From Protoeuglena noctilucae (taxonomy: Eukaryota): a stretch of DNA of 64,000 bases. Positions within the stretch are counted from its first letter, which is position 1, and each line of letters starts with the position of its first letter. The stretch lies in assembly GCA_958009085.1 (NCBI GenBank), contig OY253682.1, positions 186,001 to 250,000 on the forward strand. Direction: 5' to 3'. Below the pieces are notes generated by a model that was not told the DNA's origin, did no database searches, and worked only from the letters and a program-made list of their open reading frames with translations. Below are positions 3,113-60,237 of this stretch, piece after piece. Both the position numbers and the translations under genes were made by a program.

Positions 3113-4922
3113 TTACGGCAGCCTACTCGAAACCTCCGGGGCGTGCGCCTCGAGGGTCGCCCACTGGTCGGCGCTGAGCGACAGGCCCTTAGCTCCCGGC
3201 TTCATGTCCCCTTCCTCGCCGTAGTACTCGCGCACATCCACAAGAAGCTTGCCCTTGAAGTCCCGCACGGTGACGCGCCGCTTGGGTGCCAGCTCGGCGG
3301 AAAAGGTCACGTCTCGCGCATCCACGGCCGCGCGCACGGTGTCCATGATCCCCGCCAGCCCCTGCCACTCCGCCACCGACAGCGCAATGCCCTTCTTCCC
3401 CGGGCGCCACTCGCCCGTCCCCGCCACCTGGTAGTACTCCCGCAAATGCACAAAGCACTTGCCCTTATACTGCGGGCGGGTGTTACACTGTGTTAGGCTC
3501 TCCTCCACAGCGGCCCGCAGCGCCGTGCGCGTGCGTGTATCGCAGTCATGTCGCATCCCATACTCTGCCGGCACCTGGTTGATCGTCACCCTGCGCCCGC
3601 CCCCGAGATCCCCATGCCAGTCGTCCCCGCTCTGCTCGGCGGGCTTCGCCCCTTCCGCACGCACCGTTGCTCCCGCCCCAGCCCGGCTGCCGCTCGCCGC
3701 CCCGCCGGACTGCTGCAGCTGGCGCGTCAGCGTCGGCGCGGCCTGCAACGGGGTCCTGGGGTGGTGATGTGACGAGGAACACACAGCACCCACCCAGCCA
3801 CCCGCGCCCCCGCGTCCCTGCACACGCACCTGACACAAGGCGTCCCACTGCGCCGGCGTCAGGTTGATGCCCTTCTTCCCCGGCCGCATCTCTCCACCCG
3901 CGTCGTAGAACTCCCGGAGACCGCCAGAGAGATGCCCGCCGTAATTGGAGACCAGGGCACGTCGCATGGACCCCTCGCCTAGGCCGACCTCAAAGCTGAC
4001 GTCCTGCGCAGGTGGACAAGAACGATGATTGCCATGCCATGCAAACTGCTCGACGTGGACCATGGCCTCGCTGCCCCGACTGCATGGCTAGGTGTGCTGC
4101 TGTGGGCAGTGCAGCGTGGCCCCTCCATGGTGTGGAGGGTCCACTCCACACACACTACACGCTCGCCTTCTCGCTGAGCCGGTCGCTGATGGTGTCCATG
4201 TGCTGAACCAGGAAGGCCCACTCCGCAGGCTTGAGGGAGAGCCCCTTTGGGGACGGCTTTAGCTCCCCTGCGTGGTGCAGCAGGCTCCGATTGAGGGTTG
4301 GCGCCACCTCAAGAGCTCAGGCAGATAAAGAAGCTAGCAATGGAGAACCGTTCCGGCCGCACCCACGCACCCGTGCTCTTGTCCACGTAGAACTCGCGCA
4401 CATCGACGCTGTGGTGGCCCTTCCACTCCCGGACGGCCGCCTTCCTCACGTTCGTCGCCCCCGGCTCCGAAAGAACGATGCCATCAACCTCTCCCTCAAC
4501 CGTCCTGGGCCCGGCGCCCGCAGCAGAGGCCGAGCGCGGCCCAGCGCTCCCTGCGACCCTGGCGACCTTGGCCGCCGGGTGCGCCGCCTCCTCCTCCTCA
4601 GCGGCGTCTCCATCGTACGGGCGCTTCCATACCTCGCTCCTCGGGGCCGGCTCGGCCTTCAGATTGTCCAGATGCGCCTCAATGACGCTCTTGATCGCTG
4701 CCTTGTGCGCTGAGACGTCTGCCTGCACGTCGGAGCGCGGACGATGCAGTTCACGAGAGCCCTGCCTTGCCACACAACGGACACGCAGCAAGCCGGCGAG
4801 GTCGGCGCCCGCACCAGCCCCAGGCGCTGCGCGACAACAGCGCGGATGTCCCGCTCCGTGGTTGTGCCCAGATCCGCGTCTTGGAGAACAGCACGCGTTG
4901 TTTCTTTCACGCGGGCTTCCAT
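3113..4922 (-). CDS. KELP-like transcriptional coactivator: N-terminal DEK_C-like domain plus four PC4/Sub1 ssDNA-binding domains
   Basis: Exon 1 MEARVKETTRAVLQDADLGTTTERDIRAVVAQRLG is DEK_C-like. Four PC4 motifs follow: VDVREFY..KPSPKGLSL, LREFY..RPGKKGINL, LREYY..RPGKKGIAL and VDVREYY..KPGAKGLSL. Stop TAA at 3113-3115. Confidence 0.85.
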
Positions 4923-9499: not shown

Positions 9500-12400
9500 T
9501 CACCAGTCGTCGAAGCGGGCGAGGTTCTCATTGATGGCGCTGATGTCCTTCTGCACCTTCTTGCGCCGGTAGAAGATCGGGCAGTCGCGCGAGGTGCACA
9601 GCACGTCCTGGTGCAGCGACTCCTGGCACCGCTGGCACTGCGTCCACAGCTGCGCGTACTGCCCCTCGAACGCCTGTGCTGACGTCAGCAGCTTGTGGTA
9701 GATCTCGGCCTCCCGGGGCTTGCAGTGGTCGCACACTGTCGCCTCGCCCTTGGTCAAAGGCGACTTGCAGCCCAGGCACGCCAGGCGCTTCTGCGCAAAC
9801 TTCATGATGCCTCCCGATTGGGTCGAGGGAGTGGCGATGACCACGTTGCGCGTGTGCTCGCCCGTGAGCAGCTCGCGGGGGTTCTGCGGGGTTTGAGGGT
9901 GGGGGTGAGGGTGAGGGTGGCAGGGAGGGTGGTCGTGGGGGTGGCAGGGAGGGTGGTCGTGGGGTTGGCAGTGACGCTCACTGACGGCGTCTGTATGGTC
10001 ATATCACCACCCAGTCTCGCCTTCATCATGAACTCAGAAATGCTCACTACCAGCGCCTGCATAATCATCGTAATATCATTGTGGTATCATCATAGCAATA
10101 CCACCCCCCACGCCTCGCCTTCATGATGGGCTCGAAGATGCGCATGAGGGGCTTCTCCAAATGGTGCTCCAGGTAATGCTGGGCGTCGATGGGGAGGTTG
10201 TTCTCGAGCACGAATATGGGGTCCTCTGCCTTTTCGAATGTCTTGGCGTTCTTGGGGCCCTTGACGATGACGTAAGCGATGCGGTCCCCCACCTGGGGAC
10301 CTGCGGGGGCGGGGTTGGGGATCAATCCGGTTAATTGGAGGGGACCACTTGTTCCTTCGCAGACGGGGGTGGGGTTTGAACCAATACCAACACTTTCCAT
10401 ACCCACACCCACACCCCCTCTCACCCGTGGCCGGGTCCCTCTTCCTCATCTTCTTGGCCACCTCATCCATGCCATCATCACTACCCACACCTATACTCAC
10501 ACTACCCATACCAATACCCCCACCCACACTCACCCGTGGCCGGGTCTCTCTTCCTCATCTTCTTGGCCAGCTCCACGTGGGGTGCCGTGACTTCGTACGC
10601 CTCCGGTTCTTGCGACAGAGCCTTGGTCACCACCAGCAGAGACAGGTCCATGCGGTTCATCAGCAGGTCCGAGATGGTCTCCTGCATTCCATACAGGCCC
10701 ATGCTTCGTTCATTAAACAGGTACATAAATAGCACTGGTATCCCATCTCCCCACCCCCACCCGTCCACCCCAACCCTATCTCCATCCCCACACCTCAACG
10801 TAGCTCTCTGCCACGCCCACTCCCTTCCACCCACCCATCCCCACCCCAATCACAAACCCACTCTCACCTTGACGTAGCTCTCTGCCCTCTTCACGTCCCT
10901 CCTCATCAATATGTCCTGCAGGCACCGGTCGATGACTTGGCGCACCAGCTCACAGTTGTCACGCCTCACTGTCTCAATGCCCTTGGTGTCCATCTTGTCG
11001 GCTTTCTCGGGCTTCGTCCACAGAAGGCCCGCGTAGCGCTTCTGGGGAGGGTGGGGGGGTAGTGAGGGTGGTGATGAGGGTGGCAGTGAGGGTGGCAGTG
11101 GGGGTGGCAATAGTGGGGGTGGTAGCAATGTGAGTGGCAATTAAGAGAGCGCATCGCCATGCACCGTAATGCCCATGAACTCCCAACCGCCTCTTGACCC
11201 CAAATAGGCCTCCCACCTTGGAGATGAGCAGGTATGGCCAGTAGACCTTCTCGAATTCCAGATTGATGGGCTTGATGAACGTGGCTGTGACATACTGCGC
11301 CGCCTCTAAGCCCAACTGCGGGTGGGGTGTGGGTGTGGGTGTGGGTGTGGGTGTGGGTGTGAGTGCGGGTGTGGGTGGGGGTGGAAGTGTGGGTGCGGGT
11401 GTGGGTGTGGGTAAGGCAATGGGTGTGGGGTGCGGGTGCAAGTGCGGGTGCCGGCGCTTCCCACCGCCTCACTTACACAGCACAGCATTGTCCCTAGCCC
11501 CGCCAACCTCTCGGTCACCCAGCACAGCACAGCATCGTCGCTACTAGTAACAGAAACACCCCCTCACTCACACCACACAGCACAGCGCAGCATCGTCACT
11601 ATTAGTTGATAACAAGCAGCCTCTCACCTCCATGGCCCTCTTCACGTCGTTGGTCCCGAACCGCACCATGACTGAGTCAGTGTCCCCGTAGATGACCTGG
11701 ATGGGGAGATGATAGTAATAGTGATAGTAATAGTAATAGTAATAGTAATAGTAATAGTAATAGTAATAGTAATAGTAATAGTAATAGTAATAGTAATAGT
11801 AATAGTAATAGTAATGGCACCATGACTAAATCGGTGTCCCCGTAGATGACCTGAATTAGAGGTGGGGGAGCAAGGACAGTTGTGATGGCCCCAGTCACCT
11901 CGCAGTCGTGCTCGTATCTGTTCTCCTACCCCCACCACCATCACCACCACCACCATCCCCACCACCCATCCCCACCCACTCTCACCTCGCAATCGTGCTC
12001 GTATCCGTTCTCCTTTCTGAACTTGTCCGACACCAGCCTCTTGGTGTGGTGGATCATGTCGCGACCGAAGGCAGTGACGGAACCGGAGATCTCCAGGCAG
12101 GGCATCTTGCCCACCGTGGCGCCCGTGAAGCCGTACACTGTGGGGGGGTGCCCAGGGAAAGGGGTGGCAGGTGGGGTTTGATGCGGCGACCTCTGTGCGT
12201 GGGTGAGGAGGTGGCTGCAGCCGGGTTTGGGTTTACCCAATACTCTCCCAAGCATGCCCACCTCCCACAGCCTCACTCGTCTGCTCAACGCACCCTCCAT
12301 TCCCCACTGATGCACTCATCTCTACACAAGTCCCTCACCCGAGTTGGCCGACACCTTGAGCGCCAGCTGCCGCCCGTTCAGCACTGCTTTTTTGAATTCG

Positions 12401-15400
12401 TCGCTCTCCGCCGCCATCTCCTTGCGGGCCCTCTTCCGCGCCGCCAGGAGCTCCGTCAGAATCTCCGGCAATACGCCCGGCTTGACTGCGGGGGGTGGGG
12501 TGGGGTGGGGTGGGGTGGGGTTGGGAGTGGGGATGTCGAGGATATGCCATTGGCCTGATACTATGTCATAATAGTATCTTGCTAGCGCCGTGCTAGAATT
12601 GTGCTAGTATCACATCTCCGTACCATCAACCACCGCTGGCTGTGACGAATGGCACTGCCCTGATACTAAGTACACCATATACATGTCACACAAATACATA
12701 TTAATCACCCACTCTATGATAGTATCTCACCGCTAGCCTTCACGAACGTGTCCCCCGAGGGCGTCCTCGTCACCGTCTCCGGCGCCACGCCCCTCTCCTG
12801 CCCCTTAGGCACCAGCGTGGAGTAACACAGGTTGTGGGCCATCATGATGCTCGGGTACAGCGAAGCGAAGTCGAGCGTCGCGACCGGCTGCTCGTAGAAC
12901 CCCGCCTTGGCTTCCAGCACGGTTGCGCCCTCGTAGGAAACGCCCTCGGTGCCTGCCCGGGTGTTGATGTTGGGGACCACGTAGCCCTTGCCGCGGCACT
13001 TGCGCAGGATCTGGGAAGGGAGGGTATTGGGGGGTTGGAATAGGTGACGAGCCGAGTTGTTGATAGCTGGTACCATCGACCACCGTGTTCGATGATAGTT
13101 GCGGCATAGATACGAGCGCTGTTGTTGCCACCCATCTCGCTTGGGAGTACACTTTGATCGACTGCCTCATGCTATAACTATTACCATTACAATTACCATT
13201 ACCATCACTATAGCCAATACCCCCCCCATCATCTCGCCTGCGAGTAGACCTTGATGGACTGCCTGGTGCTATTGCAATTACCATTACCACCATAACCATA
13301 ACTATCACCAATACCCTTCATCATATACTCGCCTGCGAGTAGACCTTGATGGACTGTCCCCGGGAGAGGAGGTAGCTGAGTGGCACTCCCGTCACACGCG
13401 CCATCTCGGTGTAGTTGTACATGTACATGAGCTTGTCGAACAGACGCTGGGGGAGGTAGGCGTCCTGAGATTGAGAGAGGGGGTGTGAGGTGGTGAGGCA
13501 GTAATAAGTGTGGTTGTCGAACAGGTTGTCGAACAACTCCCGCCCACTCCACTGCACCCCCACCCCACCCCCATTCCACCCCACTCTACCCTACCCACCC
13601 CACCTCACACCCCACCCCACCCCAACCCCCTCACCTTGAGGCAGTAGACCGCGAGCCTCCTCCGCGTCTCGTCGTTCCCGTTCTGCAGGTCCGTGATAAG
13701 CGAATGGTGCACATCCTCCTTCTGCTCCCCCAGGAAGTGGGCCGAGACGCTGTTGAGGGAGTACGAAGAGAGCTTGTAGTCACGCTGCACCAGCAGTAAC
13801 ATGTCCAGCTGCACGCGGCCCTGCAATAGATGAGGTGGAGATGGGTGTATTAGCATTCAATTGCTCCATGGGCAGTAACATGTTTAGCTGCACGCGGCCC
13901 TGTGTGGATGAAGAGGGGTTGTTGCAGTGGGAATGTAAGCAATCACTGATGGTAGATGGGCAGTAACATGTCCAGCTGCACGCGGCCCTGCATTGGATAA
14001 GGAGAGATGGTAATTGAGATGACTATCTACGTCAGCAGTCACTTGGTGGATGGGCAGTAATACGTCACATCAACACCGCTGCTAATGTAACCCCCTCACC
14101 TCGATGGTGATCTCCTTGTAGCTCCTGGTGCCGTAGGCCTTGGAGCTGAACTGGGTATCGCGCATTCGAATCTTGGATGCCTTGACGCGGCCCCAGTGGA
14201 GGAAATCGGGAATCTTGAGTGACTCCGCTCGGTCAATGAGATAGGGCAGGTCGAAGTTCATGATGTTGTAGCCGATGAGGATGTCCGCGTCGGTCATGAC
14301 CAGCAAGTCATGCCAGCGCATCTGGGGGTGAGTGGGTGTGTGGGTGTGGGGTGAGGGTCGGGTGGGTGGGAGTGATGGGGTGGAGGAGGGTGGGAGTGGG
14401 AGTGGGGCAGGGTGAGGGGTGGGAGAGGGTGTGGGTGAGGGTGTGGGTGTGGGTTTGGGTGCGGGTGTGGGTGTGGGTGTGGGTGTGGGAGTGGGTGTGG
14501 GGTAGGGTGAGGGGTGGGAGAGGGTGCGGGTGGGGAGTTTTGTCATCTCAACCCACTCACCAACGCATACCCACACACTCACTCACACTCATTCCTCACC
14601 AGCATGTCCCTCTCGTTGTCAAACGAGATGACCTCACCTCAACCCACTCACCAATACATACACACATACTACATTCACACTCACCAGCATGTCCCTCTCG
14701 TTGTCGAACGAGATGACCTCGGCCCCCACGATGGGCGCGCACTTGCCCAGCGTCAGGATGTTGCGCACGAGCGTTCCGCGCCCCTGCACCGTCACGTGGC
14801 TCGCGATCTGAATCACCGGGTCCACCTTCGCATCGGGAAACTTGCCCTTGCGGCCAGCGCACTCGATGTCGACCGAAAGCACCCGCAACGGAGCGATGTC
14901 CGACCACGCGCCCTCGGGCTTGTGCGACACGAGGTCTTCGTAGTAGACGTCCGCCTCGTACTGGCTCGTCGTCAGTTTCTGCTCTTTGGGGCTGCGGGGG
15001 TGGGTGGGGAGGGGGGGGTGGGGTTGTAAGCGGGTGGTGGTGGGTGGGGAGGGTTGAGGGGTGGTGGGTGGGCAGGGCGGATAACACAGGGTGGGTGAAG
15101 CTGCCCGCCGTCATCTGCTTGGGTAATTAACCATACATCCCCGCCACAGTCCCCCGCTCACAGCCTTCACTCACCACAGCGTGTACAGATCACCAACCTT
15201 CCCCCCCAACAGCCCCCCGCATGCCCCCCTCACTCACCGCAGCGTGTACTTGCCCCTCGGCAGCTCGACCCAGTTGCACCCCACGACGTCCCGGTCGATC
15301 ATGAAGCGGAGCGCGAAGAGCACGTTGGACTCAAACGTGGTCACAGCACGATGGCCCACGCCAGGGAGGGACACCTGCCCCCGCTCCAGCATCGAGCGGA

Positions 15401-17011
15401 GGGGGATGACGAGGGTGGGGAGGGCCACAACGATCTGGAAGGGGCGAGGGAGGATGCATTTGATGAAAGTGAGCTGGGCGCAGGTGGACGAGGGGTGCTG
15501 TGCTGTGCTGTGCTGCTGCTGCGTGCTCTGCAGTGCTTTCCCCACTGTAAGGGAGAAGTGCTGGCCGACCACTTTGCTCCCTGACTCATGTTGCGTTGCC
15601 ACTCTGCCAGCCGCAATGCCTTGCCACGCTGCCCACAACGAACCACGCCTCGCCTTGAGGAAAGGCTTGGGCCCAGATGCCTGGTAGTACCACACCGACT
15701 GGCGCCGCAGGAGCTCCACGCAAGTGACGTAGCGATCCAGTCCTGGGACGTTCTTTGACTGGGCGGCTGCGGGGGCGGGGAGCGTGGGGATGATGTCTGT
15801 TGTCGACGAAAGGCGAATGCGTGTTGGGAGAGGTGGCTATTGCGCGAAGGGCTGGGGAGGGGCTGCGATAGCGACAGAGAGGCAGGGTGATACCCGAGCG
15901 GCCTTGCCAGGCACAGCACAGCACGCGGCTCGCACCCTTGTTGAGGGTCTCCCTGAGCTCCTCGCACTCGTCCGGCCTGCGCACACGAGCCATCTGGAGG
16001 TGTCCAAACTCGCGCTGGGCTCGCAAACGCGGGTCCAGATCGCCCAGCAGGGCGCAGGGTACGCACAGCCCCAGTCCCGCGCTGCACGCGCGCGCGGTAC
16101 TCTCGTTTGAGGCACTATGATTGAAGAACATTAAGAACCTCACCCGAAGGACATGCTGGGGGCCTCGATGAGGAAGTAGGGTTCGAATCCGTGGACGAAT
16201 GCCGTGCACGAGTTGCCGTTGCGCGTCACGCCGTAAATGCGGACCACGGGCACGAGGCTCGGGCCCGCAGCGACGAACGAGCGATTGGGCTTCGTGAAAG
16301 CGTAGTCGATCTCCACTTGCTGGAACACCAGGTCCTCCGACCTGCACGCACGGTGGCGGCGCAGCAAGCTTCGTGGCCAAAACGCCCCGGCGCGAATGCA
16401 AACGCCCTGAGCAGGTGCCCAAAGCGCAATTCCCTTCTTTGCGCAACAGAGCGTCAGCCTGGTGGCCGCTGCGCGCGAGGCGCTCGCCTCGGGTTGATGT
16501 CGGGCGCATCCGGCCTGGGCCAGTTCTTCCCCGGCTCCAAATCCTCGACATCCACTGCGGCGCAGCGAGGCGACTGATGCGTGCTTTGGCCAGGACCACG
16601 ATGCGGGAACACATTCGAAGCAAGGCCAAGCGCTCGGCGCAGCGTGGGTGCGCCGCGCAGAAAGCGCCCCGCCGCGCACCTCCGGCCGCAGGGTCCGCCA
16701 GGAAAGTCCCCTCCTCGTCCAAGAGCGTGTCATCAAGCTGGTCATGGTCGTCATTGACCAGCGCGTCGACGTCGTCGTCCTGCGCGGGCCAAACAACCGG
16801 GCGCACGCTGAGCACCCCGCCGCGCCGGCAGTGGCGGTAGGGGTGGGAACGACGGCACCGCGGCGTGCTGATAGACAGCATGGATAAGGAGGCGAGCGCC
16901 ATCGCGGCGTCCCTGCGTCCGATTCGCCTCCGCAGTCACCTCGACCCTCGCTCGCTTGGGCGCCCCTCCCCCCTCGGCCCCGGCCGCGCCGGAGCGCTTC
17001 CCCTGGTTCAT
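9500..17011 (-). CDS. POLD1: DNA polymerase delta catalytic subunit (about 17 exons)
   Basis: ExoI motif SVDIEC; Pol B motifs [47 protein letters not shown] and KRYAG; C-terminal CysA/CysB ([22 protein letters not shown]). Stop at 9500. Confidence 0.97.
11322..11412. repeat. (GGGTGT)n-type hexamer microsatellite in a POLD1 intron
   Basis: Visible run gggtgtgggtgtgggtgt with a few mismatches. A similar tract lies at about 14427-14502. Confidence 0.85.
11711..11815. repeat. (TAATAG)n hexamer microsatellite, about 17 units, in a POLD1 intron
   Basis: Near-perfect tagtaa repeat array. It accounts for the poly-IT and poly-L ORFs in the track. Confidence 0.95.
13793..13995 (-). repeat. Three-copy tandem duplication spanning a POLD1 acceptor site
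   Basis: CAG/GGCCGCGTGCAGCT(GG/AA)ACATGTTACTGC occurs at about 13793-13826 (real exon start), 13870-13903 and 13959-13992. Confidence 0.9.
14545..14720 (-). repeat. About 86-bp tandem duplication spanning a POLD1 donor site
   Basis: GAGGTCATCTCGTT(C/T)GACAACGAGAGGGACATGCTG/GTGAG...TTGGTGAGTGGGTTGAG occurs twice. Confidence 0.9.
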
Positions 17012-17458: not shown

Positions 17459-18313
17459 TTACAGGTGTCCGAGGGCCTGCTCTCGCATCACGTCCATTTC
17501 CAAAAAGATCTCCTCAAGGCCGGGGACGCGCCCCGTGTCTGCGTTGACGGGGAGGGTGGAAGCGAGGTTCACAGAGGGTGGAAGCGAGCCGCTTGACAGC
17601 GTCACAGCATGCGTTCAGTCTCACCGAGCTTCGAGAATATGACTTCCGCTCCGCGCCCGGCGTTGTAGAAGACCTCGAAGGCTCCGGTCTTGACCAAGTT
17701 TGTCCCAATGGTGCTCCCGATGAAGTGTGCGCCGAGGACAATCTGAATCTTGTTGCGCACGATGGCGTCCTTGTACCACTGAGGCACCGTGAGGCCCACG
17801 GCGTCCATCACGATGTCGCCGCCTAGCGCGACGGCGATGATGGCGATTCGCAGGTAGAAGAGCGCCTGGGCGACGTGGAGAGCCCACGGGTCGGAAGGCT
17901 GCGGGTGAGTTACGACGTATGTCTGGGGCCGTCCGGGGCCATTGCAGATGCATGAACCTATTCACGACATCACCGCGGTGCCGAGGGGCGAAATTCTCAC
18001 GTAGATGGCATCGTAAAAGGCTACGTCCGGGTACTTGCGCTCCATGAAGGACCGCAGCTGCAGCGCAAGACCCCGGTACCCTCATTGGGTGCAGTAGGAG
18101 AGGAGCACCGTGTTCGGAGGGCACAGAGCGGCGACCTCCTGCGGGCAAGGGCGAGATGGCTGCGAATGACGCGTGGGACATGTAAGGCATGACGCCATAG
18201 TGACGTACGGCGTCTCCTCCCATCCCCGGCCGCACCTGGTGGCGAGGGTGAGCCCCAACCACACCCAGAGCCACCGCGAGGACCACGGCGACAAGCAGGC
18301 TTTTCGCCCGCAT
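17459..18313 (-). CDS. SELENOT: Selenoprotein T (Rdx family) with in-frame UGA selenocysteine codon
   Basis: Signal peptide MRAKSLLVAVVLAVALGVVGA; LLSYCTQ-TGA(18082-18084)-GYRGLALQLRSFMERKYPD gives CxxU; LVKTGAFEVF; SKL/DTGRVPGLEEI. Stop TAA at 17459-17461, with SECIS downstream. Confidence 0.93.
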
Positions 18314-30300: not shown

Positions 30301-32344
30301 GAGCGTCAAGAGCATGAAAAGTACCAAGAGCATTCGCACCTCACGCAAGCCGAGGGGCGATACGGAGGGCGAGCCGAGGAGGGGTGTGTCGGCGAAAGAG
30401 GGTGGTGCGGAGGCGGGAGATGAGGGGGCGGGCGAGGGCGGCGGGGCGACTGCTAAGGCCCCGCCGGGCAACGCGGAGGGAGGGGTGTCATGGGGCGCGA
30501 CGGCCATGCAGATCATCAAGGCAAGGGGACCTGAGGTGTCCGTGCCGACGTCGCCGATCGGCGGTGCGGGCGCGGGTGTGCGCATTGACTTGGATGGGGG
30601 CGCCGAGGGTGGGCGCGGGGGCGGGGTGGGTGCTGGTGGTAGGCAAATGGGGGCTGCACTGGCAGGGTTTCGGCCTGAGGGGTCCGGGGAGGGCTCTGGG
30701 TCTGACGGAGAGGGTGAGGATGAGGATGATGAGGAGGAGAGTGGTGGGAAGACGGCGCTGCGCCGGGCGAGCGACATGGGGAGCGAGGACAGCCGGGCCA
30801 GGGACTTTCCCGAGCTGGTGGGGGCGCACGCGGACATCAGCCGCCACAAGAAGCGGCACCGGAGGGCCATGGAGGACGCCAAGAGGCCCGAGGTGAGGGG
30901 GGAGGGAGGAGACAGGTGTATACTGTGTGCGTCGCTGCGTGTCGGGTTCCCCTTTCTCTCGTGTCATCGCATGTGTATTGCCATCTGTTGTCCCCCGCAG
31001 TTGTCGGCGATGGACAAGAGGGTCCTGGGCCGCCACCGCCTGTCTCCTGCCGAGGTGAGTCAGTCTCTGGGTTTGGCATAGGATAGGCAGCGTGCTTGTG
31101 AGGGGTCTCCGCGTTGACCAGCCACCCTGACTGGTTACTGACTGGGCTTGGCAAGAAAGGGCCCGTCACCTCCCGCTCCCTCTCCCGCAGTTCCTGACCA
31201 TGTATGGCGCCAAGCCGTCGGACGTGCGTGGCATGACCAATGCAGACCTCATGGCGCAAGTGGAGGACCGATTGAGAGGAGTAGTGGCCGTGCAGGGCTT
31301 CATGGAAATGTACACCGCCAAGCTCGAGTCGGAGATCGTCGACGCGCACATCCCCAAGCCCATGCAGCCCATGCCGAGGGGCGGCGCCAGTGAGGCGCGT
31401 GTCGCGGGGCCCGCCGGGCAGCGGGGGGGTGTCACGCGAGGCCGGCCCAAGCCGCTCGGCGGCGCGCTGACGGACGCGGACGCGGCGGGCGCGACGGGGA
31501 CGTTGCTGGGGTTCGGGTCATCTGTGGGGAGGGAAACCGGTGCGGGGCGCACTGGGGTGTCGGTACGTGGGCCCCAGGGACGGTTTTTGACCGATGAAGA
31601 ATGGGCATCGGAGCTGTTCCTGGGTCGCAATAAGCCCAGGAAACCTCAGCTGGATCCAATCGACAAGGTGTTGCTGGCCAGGGGCAAGGGCCGGGCGACC
31701 GGGGCGGTGCCCAAAGGTCTCTCCCAGGTGACAGGGGGAGGCCGGGGGGTGGGAGGTTGGTGATTGTTGTAAAGGGAGAGGCGGGTGGAAATACGTGACG
31801 TCAATCGCCACGTAGTGCACTGCGCCCAACTATGCACCGCACCATTCCATTCCACCCCGCTCGCTGGCCGTCGCCCCATCAGCCGCTCTCCTCCGCTGTC
31901 CCGCAGGTGGGTCTGTTGACCCGCCAGGAGATTCTCTCGCTCAACCCCGGCGTGGTGGGGGAGGAGCCTAAGAACATCTTCGACGCAGTGCCCGACACGG
32001 ACCTGGGTGAGACGCCGGATGAGGGGATGCGAGTGATGAGTGGCAGTAATATGAACGATGGGAAGTGGTGGGGATGAGTAGCGGTGCTAAGGATGAGGGG
32101 ACACGGACCTGGGTGAGATGCGAGGAGGCGTTGCGAGAGGATGGGTGGCAGTAATGTGACGATTGGACGTGGTGGGGATGAGTGGCAGTGCTGGGGATGG
32201 GTCGCATGTCGGTAGCAGTTCGTGCCAAGATGGATGGACAATATTGATACTGACGATGCCATGGTCGCCCTTGCAGACTGGAAGGACGAAAGTCAGCTGG
32301 CGGACGACAGCCAGGGCCCCGTGGATCTCCTGGACAACCTCTAG
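27319..32344 (+). CDS. Large coiled-coil protein of unknown function (multi-exon)
   Basis: Heptad-rich exons at 28204-28836, 29014-29235 and 29394-29726, then a low-complexity C-terminal half. The last exon is DWKDESQLADDSQGPVDLLDNL, TAG at 32342-32344. Confidence 0.6.
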
Positions 32345-55556: not shown

Positions 55557-57530
55557 ATGGGAACGGTGGCGTATCTCGCTTCGCTGCCGAACGGCGGCCT
55601 CCAAGAGCGGCTCACTGGCGTGGCGATCGTCGCTGCGATCCACTTCGCGCTGGAATGGCTCATCCTCTACGGCAAGGCGCAAGGCTCGAGGCTCGCGGCT
55701 CGCGGCAGGGCCAGAAGCGCCGAGCACATCGAACCAGTAGCCCGCGCGCGTCGAACATGCACGCGTTCCCCTCTTCGGTGGCTCAGATTATCGCGTGTCG
55801 ATGCAAGCTCTCGTTCCGATCGCGACGGGCAGCCATCGCGGGAACAGGCGTGGCGATTGCCCGCGCGCTCCCTTGTCGCTTCGCAGGGCCGTGGCGGGCG
55901 CGCCTCGACGGCTTCATCAAGAGGCGGAACCCGGGAATCGCGGATAAGGACGTGAACGACATCGTCGTCGGCATCGCGAACCGGTCCGTGCTTTCTCTGC
56001 ACCACGTGTTGATGGTCCCCGTGGCCGCGACGGTCGTTCTCGACCCGACGATGTGGGCACGCCCGTTCGACGCCTCCACGTACGTCTCCCGAGCGGTCAT
56101 GATCATCGCCACGGGACACTTCGCCTTCGACGCCTGGTGCTGCCTGGTGAGCGCCTGCCAGCCGATCCTGCGCCTGGCAACCCTAGACCGCCGCTACCAA
56201 ACACCCCCACACCTCACCCCTCCGCTTGACGTCACGCGTCTCCTCGCCAGCACCCACACCTCTCAGACCTTGCTCACCTCGCACCCCTCGCACCTCACAC
56301 ACCTCGCCCCTCAGGTCGCCATCTCCCTCACACTGCCTCACAGAGGGACTCTCTCCACGAAGGCCCCATTTTCGCCATCCACGGCGTGTCGTCCTTCCTC
56401 CTCTTCGCCGGATGCACCGTGTCTGGGTGGGCATGGAACCTATGGGCGGCGTGCGTCATGCTGTGGGAGCTGTCCACTCCGTTTGTGCACCTGCGGTACG
56501 TGCTGCTGGTGAGTGTGACGACTAGACTTCGTGATGCCGGGTGGCGATGGAGATGGAAAGGAGCTCTCTGGTTTGCTGAACAGCACGTGGTCTTTTCATG
56601 CACCCTGCCAACCACCTGTAATTCTCAGCCCACCTCCACGCATCCCTGACCCTTGGTCCATCTCCATGCACACTGCGACGCTTGGCCCATCTCCAAACAC
56701 ACTGCTAACCCTTGTCCTCACCTGCACCACGCACCCAAGCACCCAACTGCAATTGTGTAATCCGTTGTATGCAGAACACGGGGATGAAGAGCTCCAAGCT
56801 CTACGAGGTCAACGGCGTCACGCTGACGGTGCTCTTCTTCCTGGCGAGGATCGGTGAGGGTGGTGTGGGATGGGGAATGATGAGGGGTGCGGGAGGGGTG
56901 CAGGGGGGTGTGGGGTGCAGCATGGGTGAGGGGCACAGGATGGTGTGGGTGGTAAAGGGTGGCGTGGGGTGCAGGTTCGAGTGGGGTGCAGGAAGGGTGC
57001 AGAGCAGTACAAAAACATGCAGTGTTTCGAAAGCCCCGCATCAGCGCACGACCCCTCCCCGCAGTGTTCGGCCTTTGGATGTCGTTCCGTTTCTGGCAAC
57101 TCACGGGGGATGCCCTCGCGGGGCGCCTGCCCAACCCCGTGTCCCCCACCTTCACGTGGTATGCACGACTGGCCAACCTACTCCTGTGCGGGTTCAACCT
57201 CCACTGGTTCAGCAAGATGGTGAGAAGAAGGGTGCGGTGTAAACATGCATGGTGTACGTGAGATGATGAAAGGGGGTGGATGTGTATGTGGTAAGGATTT
57301 GGCCAACGAGGGGTTTGCGTGGGCATAGGATGGGAGTGCAATGCTCGCCCCGGCACCCTCCTTGAGGTCCCCAGCCAACCAGAGCACGAACTGCGCACGC
57401 GCCAGCCACAGCACGATCCCGTCGCACTCGCTCGCAGATGCGCTACGTCTTCCGCCACTTCTACGGTCAGAAGAAGGAAAGGCGGGTGCCGGCACGGCCC
57501 GGAAAGATCAAGAGCACTGACTCCGAGTGA
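55557..57530 (+). CDS. TLC (TRAM/LAG1/CLN8) domain membrane protein, TMEM56/TLCD4-like
   Basis: GHFAFD, FAIHG, LWELSTPFVHLRY, VNGVTLTVLFFLARI and FNLHWFSKM. Stop TGA at 57528-57530. Confidence 0.85.
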
Positions 57531-58190: not shown

Positions 58191-60237
58191 TCATCGGGAC
58201 TTCTTGGTCTCCCCCTGTGCCCCACCGACCGCGCTCGCCCCCCCAGCCGCCGCACTGCTGACCTCCTTAGTGCTTGCCCCCGCCCCACTCCCCGTGACAA
58301 CACTACCCGCAGTGCCTGTACTGCCTGCGTGTGCGCCTCCCCCACTCCCCGTGACACTGCCAGCTGAGGTTTGCCCTGCCAGATTGGGCACACCGGGGGC
58401 GTCGGGGTGGGTGGCGAACCTGGGCCCATCGATTTCGTGATATTTGGCGCGGAAGGCCTGGCGCTTGGATGCGGGGTAGGTCTCGCGGGTGATGAGGAGC
58501 GCTGCGGGGTGTGGGGGGGAGGGGATGTGAGAGGGAGGGAGTGAGAGGGCGTGGGGAGGGTCGTGCTTTGTGTGGCGAGGGTTGTATAGTACTAAGGGGG
58601 TGTCGGGAGTGGCAAGAGGGCCAGGTCGCATTGTGCTTGAAATGTTACGTGTTACATGCAACCCCGCACCTGTGTCGATGACGAGCGCGAGCATGATGCC
58701 CAGGCACCCCATGAGGTATCGCACGGCAGGCTCCGAGGAGATGCCTTTGCCCAGGTAGTAGAACATGACGTAGAAGGTCAGCATCGACTGTGGGGAGACA
58801 ATGGTGCATGGATGGTCAGCATGGGCTGCTGGAGGGACGACGAGGGACGACGGGGCGACACTATGGGTTGGGTTTGGTGAATACAACTGGTGCAGTACTC
58901 TGTGCACAACTGCTGCATTGCCATGACCACAACCCATAGTCTCTCATCACCAGCGATACCCCCACTCACAGCCTCTCATCACCAACCACACCTCCATTCA
59001 TAGTCTCTCCATCACCAACTACACTCCCACTCACCAGTATGACGTTGGCCCCGAAGCTGAGGCTGGATCGGTACTCCCCGAACTGCGTCTCGGCCATTTC
59101 ATTGGCGCGGCGCTCCTCGACCGTCACGCCTGGGTGCACACGGTGAGGAGGGGTGATGTGAGGGTGATGAGAGGGTGGTGTGAGGGTGGGCATGCATGTG
59201 AGGGCGTTCACGCATTCACAGGCGCCACCTACCCACCCGTTACCATTCACCTCGCAGCCACGCACCTGCCACCATGGCCTGGTACTGCCTCTCCTCGTAT
59301 TCCGCACGCAGCCTCGCCCTCCGCGCCTCCGCCTCCGCGTCAGGCGGGGCGGCCCTGGGGGGCTCCGGAAACACTGGTCGAGTGCGGCGCAGGAGGTGCG
59401 CGAGAGGAGGGGGCTGGTACGAGCCCACTGCGGGCGGCGATGGGGAGGAGCGTGGGGCATGTGTTGGCTTGTTGTGGGGGTTGGTGATCAGCAGGTGCGT
59501 GGTGGGTGTGCCGATCCAGTGCACAGGCACCCTGCCTTGCGCTGTGCTGGCGCCATGGGTTGTGTGTGCCCACCCCTGTGCTATGAGTATAATCATCTCT
59601 CCTCGACTCACCGCGTCCTTTGCTTCTGACCTCCACCCAGGCCGCTCGCAGCACCGACCACGGCACGCAGTCATGAGATGTGCCGGGAGTGAGCCCTGTT
59701 GATGCAACAACTGCAGTGCGTGGGAAAAGGTGCAGGGAGGCTCACTGTATGACAGAGGCTCGCGGTAAAAGCCTTGGCACCTATCACAGCTCAAACGCAG
59801 TACCTGTGACACTACAGCCCTCAGTTCCTCTTTGGCAGGCCACTCACGTGTACTATGAGTTGATTGCAAGCCATGATCTACACTACACGAGGCATGCCCA
59901 AACAAGCGACAGGAACTGCGCGCAAGCATGCTCGCATTCCAAGCCCATGCACCTCACCTCGTGACGACACCCCTGCGGTCTCCAGCAGTCGCTGGACATC
60001 CTCCGTCGCAGCCAAGGCCAGCCCGGCCACTGGCGCAGCGCTGGCCATTCCACCGGCGCCTCTACCGGCACCTCCCGCACCCACGCGCGACCCTTGCAGC
60101 CCCGATGCAGCCCCTGTGCCAGCCTCGGTCCCACCCGCAGCTGCACTCGCACTGGCTGCGTGCCGCACTGGCTGCGTGGCTGTTGCAGGCCCAGCGGGCC
60201 CGGCGCTGGGCCCTGCGTCACCATCACTATCACCCAT
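58191..60237 (-). CDS. V-ATPase assembly factor VMA12/TMEM199-like
   Basis: LLRRTRPVFPEPP..RRARLRAEYEERQYQAMV, then two hydrophobic segments (LSFGANVIL/SMLTFYVMFYY and YLMGCLGIMLALVIDT/ALLITR). Confidence 0.7.
58934..59036 (-). repeat. About three diverged 33-36 bp tandem units at the 5' end of a VMA12-like intron
   Basis: Minus-strand units resemble GTGAGTGGGAGTGTAGTTGGTGATGGAGAGACTATG and repeat the GTGAGT donor motif. Confidence 0.7.

Follow-up and report, generated by a model that had tools for sequence, protein, structure and literature searches.

Diverged copies of exon-intron junctions and intron growth by local duplication in the POLD1 gene of Protoeuglena noctilucae

We analyzed a stretch of 64,000 nucleotides (nt) of DNA from the marine green alga Protoeuglena noctilucae (contig OY253682.1 of assembly GCA_958009085.1, positions 186,001 to 250,000; the whole stretch is called the window here) with a focus on POLD1, the gene for the catalytic subunit of DNA polymerase delta. 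Introns of this gene contain diverged copies of the neighboring exon edge together with its splice site, for which we use the term echoes. In total, 11 echo copies belonging to nine junction sides were found in eight introns. With moderate confidence, we regard these echoes as the scars of small local DNA duplications, which occurred repeatedly over a long period in the repeat-prone introns of POLD1. The gene is a case of intron growth; it is neither a case of intron gain nor a source of productive isoforms. As single events, the duplications are of a known kind, namely tandem duplications spanning an exon-intron boundary, and it is their number that is unusual. An earlier note on the same DNA, made from the sequence alone, had listed the echoes and proposed that tandem duplications are repeatedly centered on splice junctions, either as a route of intron growth or gain or as a store of further splice sites. 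All positions given below are those of the window.

Results

Gene model of POLD1

POLD1 was recognized by 15–16 collinear tblastn segments extending from about residue 47 to the C-terminal end of the reference proteins P0003, P0008, P0017, and P0028, which carry the domains PF03104, PF00136, and PF14260. For P0003, residues 47–1086 were covered by 16 collinear segments with 44–83% identity, similar segments were obtained with the three other references, and the 5′ end of the gene was mapped as far as reference residue 47. The similarity to POLD1 is collinear and full-length, including the exonuclease, the polymerase, and the C-terminal zinc-finger domains. A protein database search with one POLD1 exon as query retrieved DNA polymerase delta proteins of green algae. 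Over the full length, the best match was 73% identical, and no identical protein was on record there.

The gene model was built from the tblastn segments and by enumeration of the frame-compatible GT/GC-AG pairs between them. It contains 15 introns, named I-1 and I0 to I13, of which 13 (I1–I13) lie inside the interval treated in the earlier note, which is located in the 3′ two-thirds of the gene. From position 15434 to the stop at 9503, the coding sequence is open for 892 codons without an internal stop. Strong donors (GTGAG or GCGAG) and CAG acceptors are present in most of the modeled introns. Three of the 15 donors are of the GC type (GCGAG; I0 at 15653, I5 at 13332, and I13 at 10118, minus strand), which is a high share for one gene, and the echoes of GC-type donors keep the GC.

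The closest genomic relatives that could be retrieved in a metagenome scan share 67–68% protein identity over the query exon. POLD1 is intronless in the relatives L001, L004, and L010 and has one intron in L009, compared with at least 15 introns here. Duplications in these four relatives fall in genes other than POLD1. Just downstream of POLD1 in L009 (8159–8786), there are at least eight units of 81-nt in-frame tandem repeats, which probably belong to a repeat-protein gene.

Detection of echoes in POLD1 introns

All 11 echoes listed in the earlier note were recovered by a repeat search within a few bases of where they had been reported, and the list of open reading frames (ORFs) shows the peptide pairs quoted there. 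The position of each parent copy coincides exactly with a splice junction of the gene model (Table 1). To test all 30 junction sides, we aligned 40 exon nt together with 8 intron nt of every side to its own intron, and all other introns as well as 200 dinucleotide shuffles served as controls. Nine of the 30 sides, namely the donors of I1, I2, I5, I8, I11, I12, and I13 and the acceptors of I3 and I8, scored 14–40 (z 6.6–34). None of the 200 shuffles reached the respective score, and the introns other than the own one reached 12.5 at most. All nine alignments cross the splice site. The acceptor of I4 is a weak tenth side with a score of 11, where an exon-internal 11-mer is present twice, and the other 20 sides remained at background in the same alignment test. 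The count of at least seven affected introns in the earlier note is thereby confirmed and slightly extended.

Table 1. Positions and properties of POLD1, its echo-bearing introns, and related arrays in the window. Junctions are given as pairs of adjacent positions; fractions are identical exon nt of the echo unless marked as intron part, and z refers to the intron part of the unit.
Feature	Position	Strand	Units and copies	Repeat family and scores	Junction and echo
POLD1 (DNA polymerase delta catalytic subunit)	9503..16558	(-)	at least 16 exons		stop codon 9503-9505
I1 donor array	15139..15249	(-)	unit 63 nt	D13 (15139/15202); junction test 17.5	parent 15238/15237; echo junction-equivalent 15175; 11/12; intron part 36/52, z 5.7; GTGAG kept
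I2 donor array	14543..14720	(-)	unit 85 nt, 2.0 copies	D14 (14595/14680); TRF score 263; junction test 38.5	parent 14685/14684; echo 14595-14635; 35/36; z 4.7; GTGAG kept
I3 acceptor array	13793..14065	(-)	units 79 and 88 nt plus partial further unit; three copies plus partial fourth	D6 (13793/13872/13960), D11; junction test 33.0	real exon start 13820; echo acceptors 13899 and 13987; each 26/28 to the neighboring copy; CAG kept in both
I5 donor array	13133..13356	(-)	units 95 and 97 nt, three copies	D9, D10 (13136/13233/13328); junction test 29.0	parent (GC-type) 13333/13332; near echo 24/24, z 7.6; far echo 19/24, z 3.1; GCGAG kept in both
I8 donor echo	11895..12014	(-)		D17 (11895/11982); junction test 28.0	parent 11982-12014, junction 11986/11985; echo 11895-11927; 27/29; z 1.3; weakened to GTGAC
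I8 acceptor echo	11663..11856	(-)		D15 (11663/11817); junction test 30.0	parent 11663-11702, exon start 11696; echo 11817-11856; 31/34; CAG kept
48-nt 'proto-intron'	11851..11898	(-)	offsets 87 and 154 nt		between both I8 echoes
I9 array	11462..11627	(-)	3-4 units of ~46-55 nt	D12, D18; sequence read	begins at donor GT
I11 donor echo	10791..10886	(-)	unit 74 nt	D19 (10791/10865); junction test 17.0	parent 10868/10867; echo 10791-10812; 17/19; weakened to GTGTG
I12 donor array	10380..10573	(-)	unit 109 nt	D5 (10380-10464/10489-10573, 85 nt at 86%); junction test 40.0	parent 10534/10533; exon-like echo part 10425-10464; 38/40; z 5.0; GTGAG kept
I13 donor echo	10007..10144	(-)	unit 98 nt	D16 (10007/10105, 73%); junction test 14.0 (0/200 shuffles)	parent (GC-type) 10119/10118; echo 10016-10046; 21/27; GCGAG kept
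Tandem array in another gene	31994..32199	(+)	unit 104-106 nt, 2.0 copies	TRF score 291	unit begins 13 nt upstream of a GTGAGA donor
Array in a further gene	58935..59037	(-)	period 32, 3.1 copies; pairwise offset 64 nt	TRF	begins at GTGAGTGGG donor; 0-1 exon nt included

An origin of the echoes from assembly stutter or from collapsed or expanded repeats is most unlikely. The region is indeed rich in microsatellites, which are badly handled by assemblers. However, stutter gives identical copies, whereas the copies of most pairs found here are diverged (73–98% identity) and flanked by different sequence, and the gene model is open through all junctions. In addition, two marine metagenome runs of a different study, X5 and X6, hold 0.92 and 0.86, respectively, of the 31-mers sampled from an 8-kb stretch, while about 0.83 is, as a rough estimate, the ceiling if all echo units (1029 nt plus boundary words) were absent. 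For RNA runs, the corresponding shares were 0.38 to 0.12, which we do not take as a sign of splicing.

Architecture and age of the arrays

To describe the architecture, consecutive and non-overlapping units were compared. In I1, I2, I5 (first pair), and I12, the duplication extends beyond the exon edge into the intron part of the unit (z 4.7–7.6), which identifies these four as true tandem duplications; their units measure 63, 85, 95, and 109 nt, respectively. The scrambled portions of the tandem units consist of hexamer-like microsatellite sequence. Only the exon edge and a few intron bases are repeated in I8 and, less clearly, in I11, I13, and I3. The proposal of the earlier note is supported in that the echoes are local duplications comprising the exon edge and its splice site; in I8, the copies are separated by filler. 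At the unit boundaries, the copies are too diverged for microhomology to be judged by eye.

The events differ in age, as the identity of the exon part ranges from 24/24 for the near echo in I5 to 21/27 in I13, which is the oldest array. In I3, the far copy is closer to the exon than the near copy is, with 33 of 33 identical positions (13793–13825 versus 13960–13992, 100%). A tblastn high-scoring segment pair falls on the echo in I12 (P0008, residues 882–895).

I8 is unlike the other introns in that copies of both exon edges flank microsatellite filler around a core of 48 nt. The 54-nt spacer on the donor side is a G-rich, triplet-type microsatellite, and the spacer on the acceptor side is a hexamer microsatellite of 17 copies (11712–11815, 97% matches; D2 and TRF); neither of them is duplicated. 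The core between the two echoes, whose 48 nt are the computed pre-duplication length of the intron, is a miniature nested in I8, in which an exon end is followed by a short intron and an exon start. In I9, every unit of the array opens with a GTGAG-like motif, and there is essentially no exon echo.

Weaker or different repeats were also seen in other introns or intron parts. I4 (13465–13634) contains weak copies of 10–11 nt of both flanking exons, and the piece of the downstream exon, present twice (13512–13535), precedes the tail of the upstream exon (13494–13503), which is the order expected after an entire short intron has been duplicated together with its two flanks. I6 (12544–12671) has a weak duplication of 23 nt (83% identity, offset 105) that is internal to the intron and includes no junction; it is counted below as one of two internal arrays. 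Long G-rich hexamer arrays are found at 11320–11438 in I9 and at 14323–14532 in I2, in both cases in the acceptor-side part of the intron.

Consequences of echo-site use

The splice signals of the echoes are largely intact. GT or GC at positions +1/+2 is kept in all eight donor echoes and the motif G[TC]GAG in six of them, and all three acceptor echoes keep CAG. We computed the outcome of splicing at each of the 11 echo sites: 63–192 nt are inserted and a premature stop results in every case, including the three in which the reading frame is maintained. Because of this, the echoes cannot encode alternative polymerase isoforms, and the store of alternative sites suggested in the earlier note is, as far as productive sites are concerned, not supported.

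A premature stop at all sites is what control by unproductive splicing requires, and the echoes might be functional decoys or competing sites that tune the level of polymerase delta via premature-stop isoforms; alternatively, they might be steps of recursive splicing. The retained donor and acceptor motifs would fit such roles, as would the exon-like parts of several echoes, which are 96–100% identical while the adjoining microsatellite-like intron parts are scrambled, and the concentration of echoes in one essential, cell-cycle-regulated gene. For recursive splicing, four of the eight donor echoes have the minimum of such a site, an AG directly before G[TC]. We nevertheless consider a function of this kind improbable. 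Identity extends from 100% down to 73%, the older echoes are not visibly preserved, two donor motifs are already weakened, and the good preservation of some parts is accounted for by their young age and by slippage, which affects the microsatellite parts alone. Upstream of the donor echoes, the sequence is G-rich and not pyrimidine-rich, which makes use as recursive acceptors unlikely, and the echo-bearing introns, with a present length of 186–363 nt and the echoes 63–192 nt inside, have no need for recursion. Moreover, a similar structure occurs in an unrelated gene, and such sites were silent in the human F7 precedent (PMC1557585).

Intron growth and placement of the duplicated units

Duplicated units account for 1029 of the 3256 nt of introns I1–I13 (32%), so that the part of the earlier proposal concerning intron growth stands. 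After subtraction of these units, the pre-duplication introns measure 48–278 nt with a median of 127 nt, which is about the size of the units (63–154 nt in the arrays, and 63–109 nt in most tandem cases).

Under the explanation that we favor, most events were head-to-tail tandem duplications of 63–109 nt, and a few left exon-edge copies separated by filler. They probably stem from replication slippage, or from staggered breaks that were filled in and end-joined. Selection would eliminate duplications confined to an exon of this essential gene. A duplication across a junction would be harmless as long as the site contiguous with the exon is used, i.e., the first donor or the last acceptor, and the inner copy would simply become part of a longer intron. 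The net effect is intron growth, accompanied by intact, probably silent pseudo splice sites that would have no function of their own.

Since unit length is close to that of the original introns (median 127 nt, as above), most of the surviving duplications must straddle a junction. With a geometric null in which units are placed uniformly and exon-internal events are lost, 7.6 of the 11 arrays are expected to span a junction, compared with nine observed (P = 0.26). A centering of duplications on splice junctions, as put forward in the earlier note, is therefore not supported beyond chance; junction-spanning events were no more frequent than random placement predicts, and this is the result that the note itself had named as speaking against its claim. 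The apparent centering reflects mostly geometry and selection.

Skew to intron ends and concentration in one gene

Several observations weigh against our explanation, which accounts neither for the concentration of the duplications in one gene nor for their skew to the intron ends. With respect to the skew, exon sequence makes up less than half of the unit in 10 of 10 cases (mean share 0.28; sign test p = 0.002; Kolmogorov–Smirnov test p = 0.001), the unit centers are displaced into the intron by 6.5–43 nt from its end in all 10 (mean 21 nt), and two arrays, those in I9 and at 58.9 kb, begin exactly at the GT of the donor. Uniform placement predicts neither the skewed exon share nor arrays starting at the donor.

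The concentration was determined by an annotation-free gapped scan, in which every 48-mer was compared with the next 400 nt and low-complexity matches were removed. It yielded 15 duplication clusters in 9883–15300 and 17 in the other 58.6 kb, corresponding to 2.77 clusters per kb in 5.4 kb and 0.29 in the rest of the window, an approximately 10-fold difference that the neutral model leaves unexplained. Clusters scoring at least 25 numbered seven and two, respectively. In 80 POLD1 loci from other organisms (601 kb), there were 0.24 clusters per kb, and a total of 15 clusters were strong, resulting in rate ratios of about 12 for all clusters and about 52 for strong ones in the POLD1 stretch relative to the foreign loci; the nominal P values (1e-8 and 1e-6) overstate the significance, because clusters within one array are not independent. 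Exon-tail donor echoes were present at seven of the 15 modeled POLD1 donors compared with one clear case among 104 candidate donors elsewhere in the window. These candidates are donor-like sites following coding-like ORFs, and perhaps only some of them are true donors. In Fisher's test, p is 9e-7 to 1e-5 with all 104 counted and 0.0009–0.009 if only 30 of the 104 are real donors.

A further difficulty concerns the assumed silence of the echo sites. Both acceptor echoes in I3 keep CAG, at least the far one apparently with a plausible branch-site motif upstream, and their misuse would be expected if the first AG is simply selected.

The skew and the concentration suggest an alternative, in which a mutational process is aimed at intron ends. 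G-rich intron heads just after the donor and C-rich tails before the acceptor might cause replication to stall or might be prone to nicks (e.g., by way of a G-quadruplex or an R-loop on the transcribed gene), and repair would then duplicate the surrounding 60–150 nt, so that junction copies would reflect the location of the damage and not survivorship only. Besides the consistent position of the unit centers, the low exon share, the two arrays starting exactly at a donor GT, and the strong local excess of duplications, such a process would account for the fact that only two tandem repeats with a TRF period above 50 nt occur in the 64 kb, one in I2 and one at 32.0 kb, and that both cross a donor. 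Donor arrays also outnumber acceptor arrays, with seven versus two in POLD1 (p = 0.18) and eight versus two when the second gene is included (p = 0.11), although the difference is not significant. Against an aimed process stands the junction-spanning fraction, which does not exceed the geometric null. A mutational bias to G-rich intron heads would explain the skewed exon share, but it could also come from selection against mostly-exon units: such a unit would strip the real donor of its G-rich context and favor the pseudo-donor. Echo-free genes in the window also have G-rich intron heads, e.g., at 56.85 kb, and the sample consists of one gene and two further arrays. Overall, we consider an aimed process unlikely. 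The same low probability applies to a broader form of the idea, according to which splice-site neighborhoods in this alga are mutational hot spots with POLD1 as an extreme case, and some echoes, especially the I3 acceptors, yield unproductive transcripts. If this were true, it would represent a route of intron growth linked to splicing signals, which is without description in the open-access literature searched.

Recurrence in an unrelated gene speaks for small local duplications as the cause. The array at 31994–32199 has a structure similar to that in POLD1: as its unit starts upstream of the donor, the exon tail and the donor recur inside the intron.

Composition and other repeats in the window

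The tandem-repeat hot spot coincides with a dip in G+C content at 10000–14000 (0.56–0.58, compared with 0.61–0.71 elsewhere in the window), and 18 of the 51 TRF rows of all periods fall within a 5.2-kb stretch of this region. The third codon positions of the POLD1 exons have a G+C content of 0.68–0.77 here, compared with 0.8–0.9 in many neighboring ORFs. The neighbors of POLD1 are ordinary genes, several of which are visibly split into exons.

Four echo candidates outside POLD1 were rejected, and a further candidate is located at 17562 (offset 22 nt). The pair 3221/3431 is a protein repeat inside an ORF with three PC4 domain stretches, the candidate at 56926 is a G-rich array of a 17-mer without an exon copy, the pair 38490/38580 is an in-frame offset of 90 nt in apparent coding sequence, and the pair 21370/21441 has no splice motif. 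The ORF with the PC4 stretches (3116–4087, minus strand) carries three of them in tandem (PC4, transcriptional coactivator p15), and its internal repeat of 210 nt is a protein-domain repeat. No known RNA family was found by Rfam anywhere in the window.

Discussion

The closest precedent for the POLD1 arrays is the 37-bp minisatellite in intron 7 (IVS7) of the human F7 gene, the first unit of which spans the exon-intron boundary (Borensztajn et al. 2006, PMC1557585). In F7, the pseudo-donors are functional but silent, and the most upstream site is selected (PMC1557585). Both systems have an authentic donor followed by look-alike pseudo-donors inside the intron. In I1, I2, I5, and I12, the first unit likewise contains the exon end with the authentic site, the units are arranged head to tail, and the inner units carry pseudo splice sites. 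F7 differs in that one intron with identical 37-bp units is concerned, whereas POLD1 has eight introns with units of 63–154 nt, 2–4 copies, and a divergence of 0–27%. Unlike F7, POLD1 also has arrays on the acceptor side, where splicing has to take the last site, as well as arrays whose copies are separated by unrelated filler. The pseudo-sites were demonstrated experimentally to be silent in F7, whereas for POLD1 their silence is a prediction. Among the open-access papers searched, no multi-intron or algal case of junction-spanning arrays was found.

Internal gene duplication was reportedly addressed by Gao and Lynch in 2009. [quoted passage not shown] A small intragenic tandem duplication supplies splice signals and alters the exon-intron structure without changing the protein, which is also true for POLD1. 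In the Rogers model, however, an exonic duplication creates the intron, and the ends of the new intron copy the flanking exons, whereas the POLD1 introns pre-existed and the copies are interior. Introners, on the other hand, form multi-copy families with target-site duplications of 3–9 bp linking the intron ends (Gozashti et al. 2022, PMC9860276). They resemble the present case in their occurrence in marine algae, in the duplicated boundary sequence, and in that a splice site can be recruited from the duplicated target. In contrast, the POLD1 introns show no family similarity within the window, and their repeats are internal and comprise 22–45 nt of exon and intron head.

Both models bear on whether the echoes could be footprints of intron birth or of mobile introns, arising as target-site duplications of introners or by tandem duplication of an AGGT-containing segment. 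Three observations could be taken in this sense: POLD1 is rich in introns compared with its nearest metagenome relatives, I8 holds a nested 48-nt mini-intron with both exon edges, and the weak copies of both flanking exons in I4 stand in the order of a whole-intron duplication. Comparison of exon tails with intron ends and of exon heads with intron starts in all 15 introns revealed, however, no far-end echo of the Rogers type apart from weak matches in I4 (exon tail versus intron end, 10.0; others 6.0 at most) and I0 (exon head versus intron start, 9.0; others 5.0 at most). All other tails and heads were at most 0.5 above the other-intron controls, so that 13 of the 15 introns were at control level with regard to target-site duplications as well, and none came near the scores of 14–40 of the internal echoes. 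When the 15 introns were compared with the 64-kb window by blastn, non-self matches outside their own flanks were restricted to low-complexity hexamer arrays, i.e., there was no sign of a multi-copy family in the window. In addition, the echoes are much longer (22–45 nt) than the target-site duplications described for introners (PMC9860276), and they are interior to introns that have complete ends of their own. We consider intron birth very improbable as the source of the echoes. Of the two possibilities named in the earlier note, growth or gain, the latter is thus not borne out, given the lack of strong far-end echoes and of an interspersed family in the window.

With regard to a source of the local duplications that we favor as explanation, known break-repair products offer a possible parallel. 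Insertions in Ostreococcus tauri carry filler of 55–83 nt, and the insertion in line T3 is flanked by a direct target duplication of 518 bp (PMC8002553). Fill-in at breaks with 3′ overhangs leads to small tandem duplications (PMC8355091). The likeness lies in the length of the duplications, tens to hundreds of bases, and in the order of target copy, filler, and target copy as in I8. These cases are experimental, with induced breaks or transgene insertions, and the available text of the papers describes neither a link to splice junctions nor a recurrence in one gene.

The significance of the POLD1 arrays lies in the fact that, in a single essential gene, eight of 13 introns in a row are affected, on donor and acceptor sides and with copies ranging from near-identical to 27% diverged, so that they provide a clear and datable example of the growth of short introns. 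They also form a natural test set for splice-site choice in a green alga. In seven introns, the first of two to three similar donors must win, and in I3 and I8 it is the last of two to three similar acceptors, which is not predicted by simple first-AG scanning. If the local excess of duplications reflects a mutational bias at intron ends, splicing signals would be linked to genome instability; if there is no such bias, POLD1 would illustrate how selection filters random duplications.

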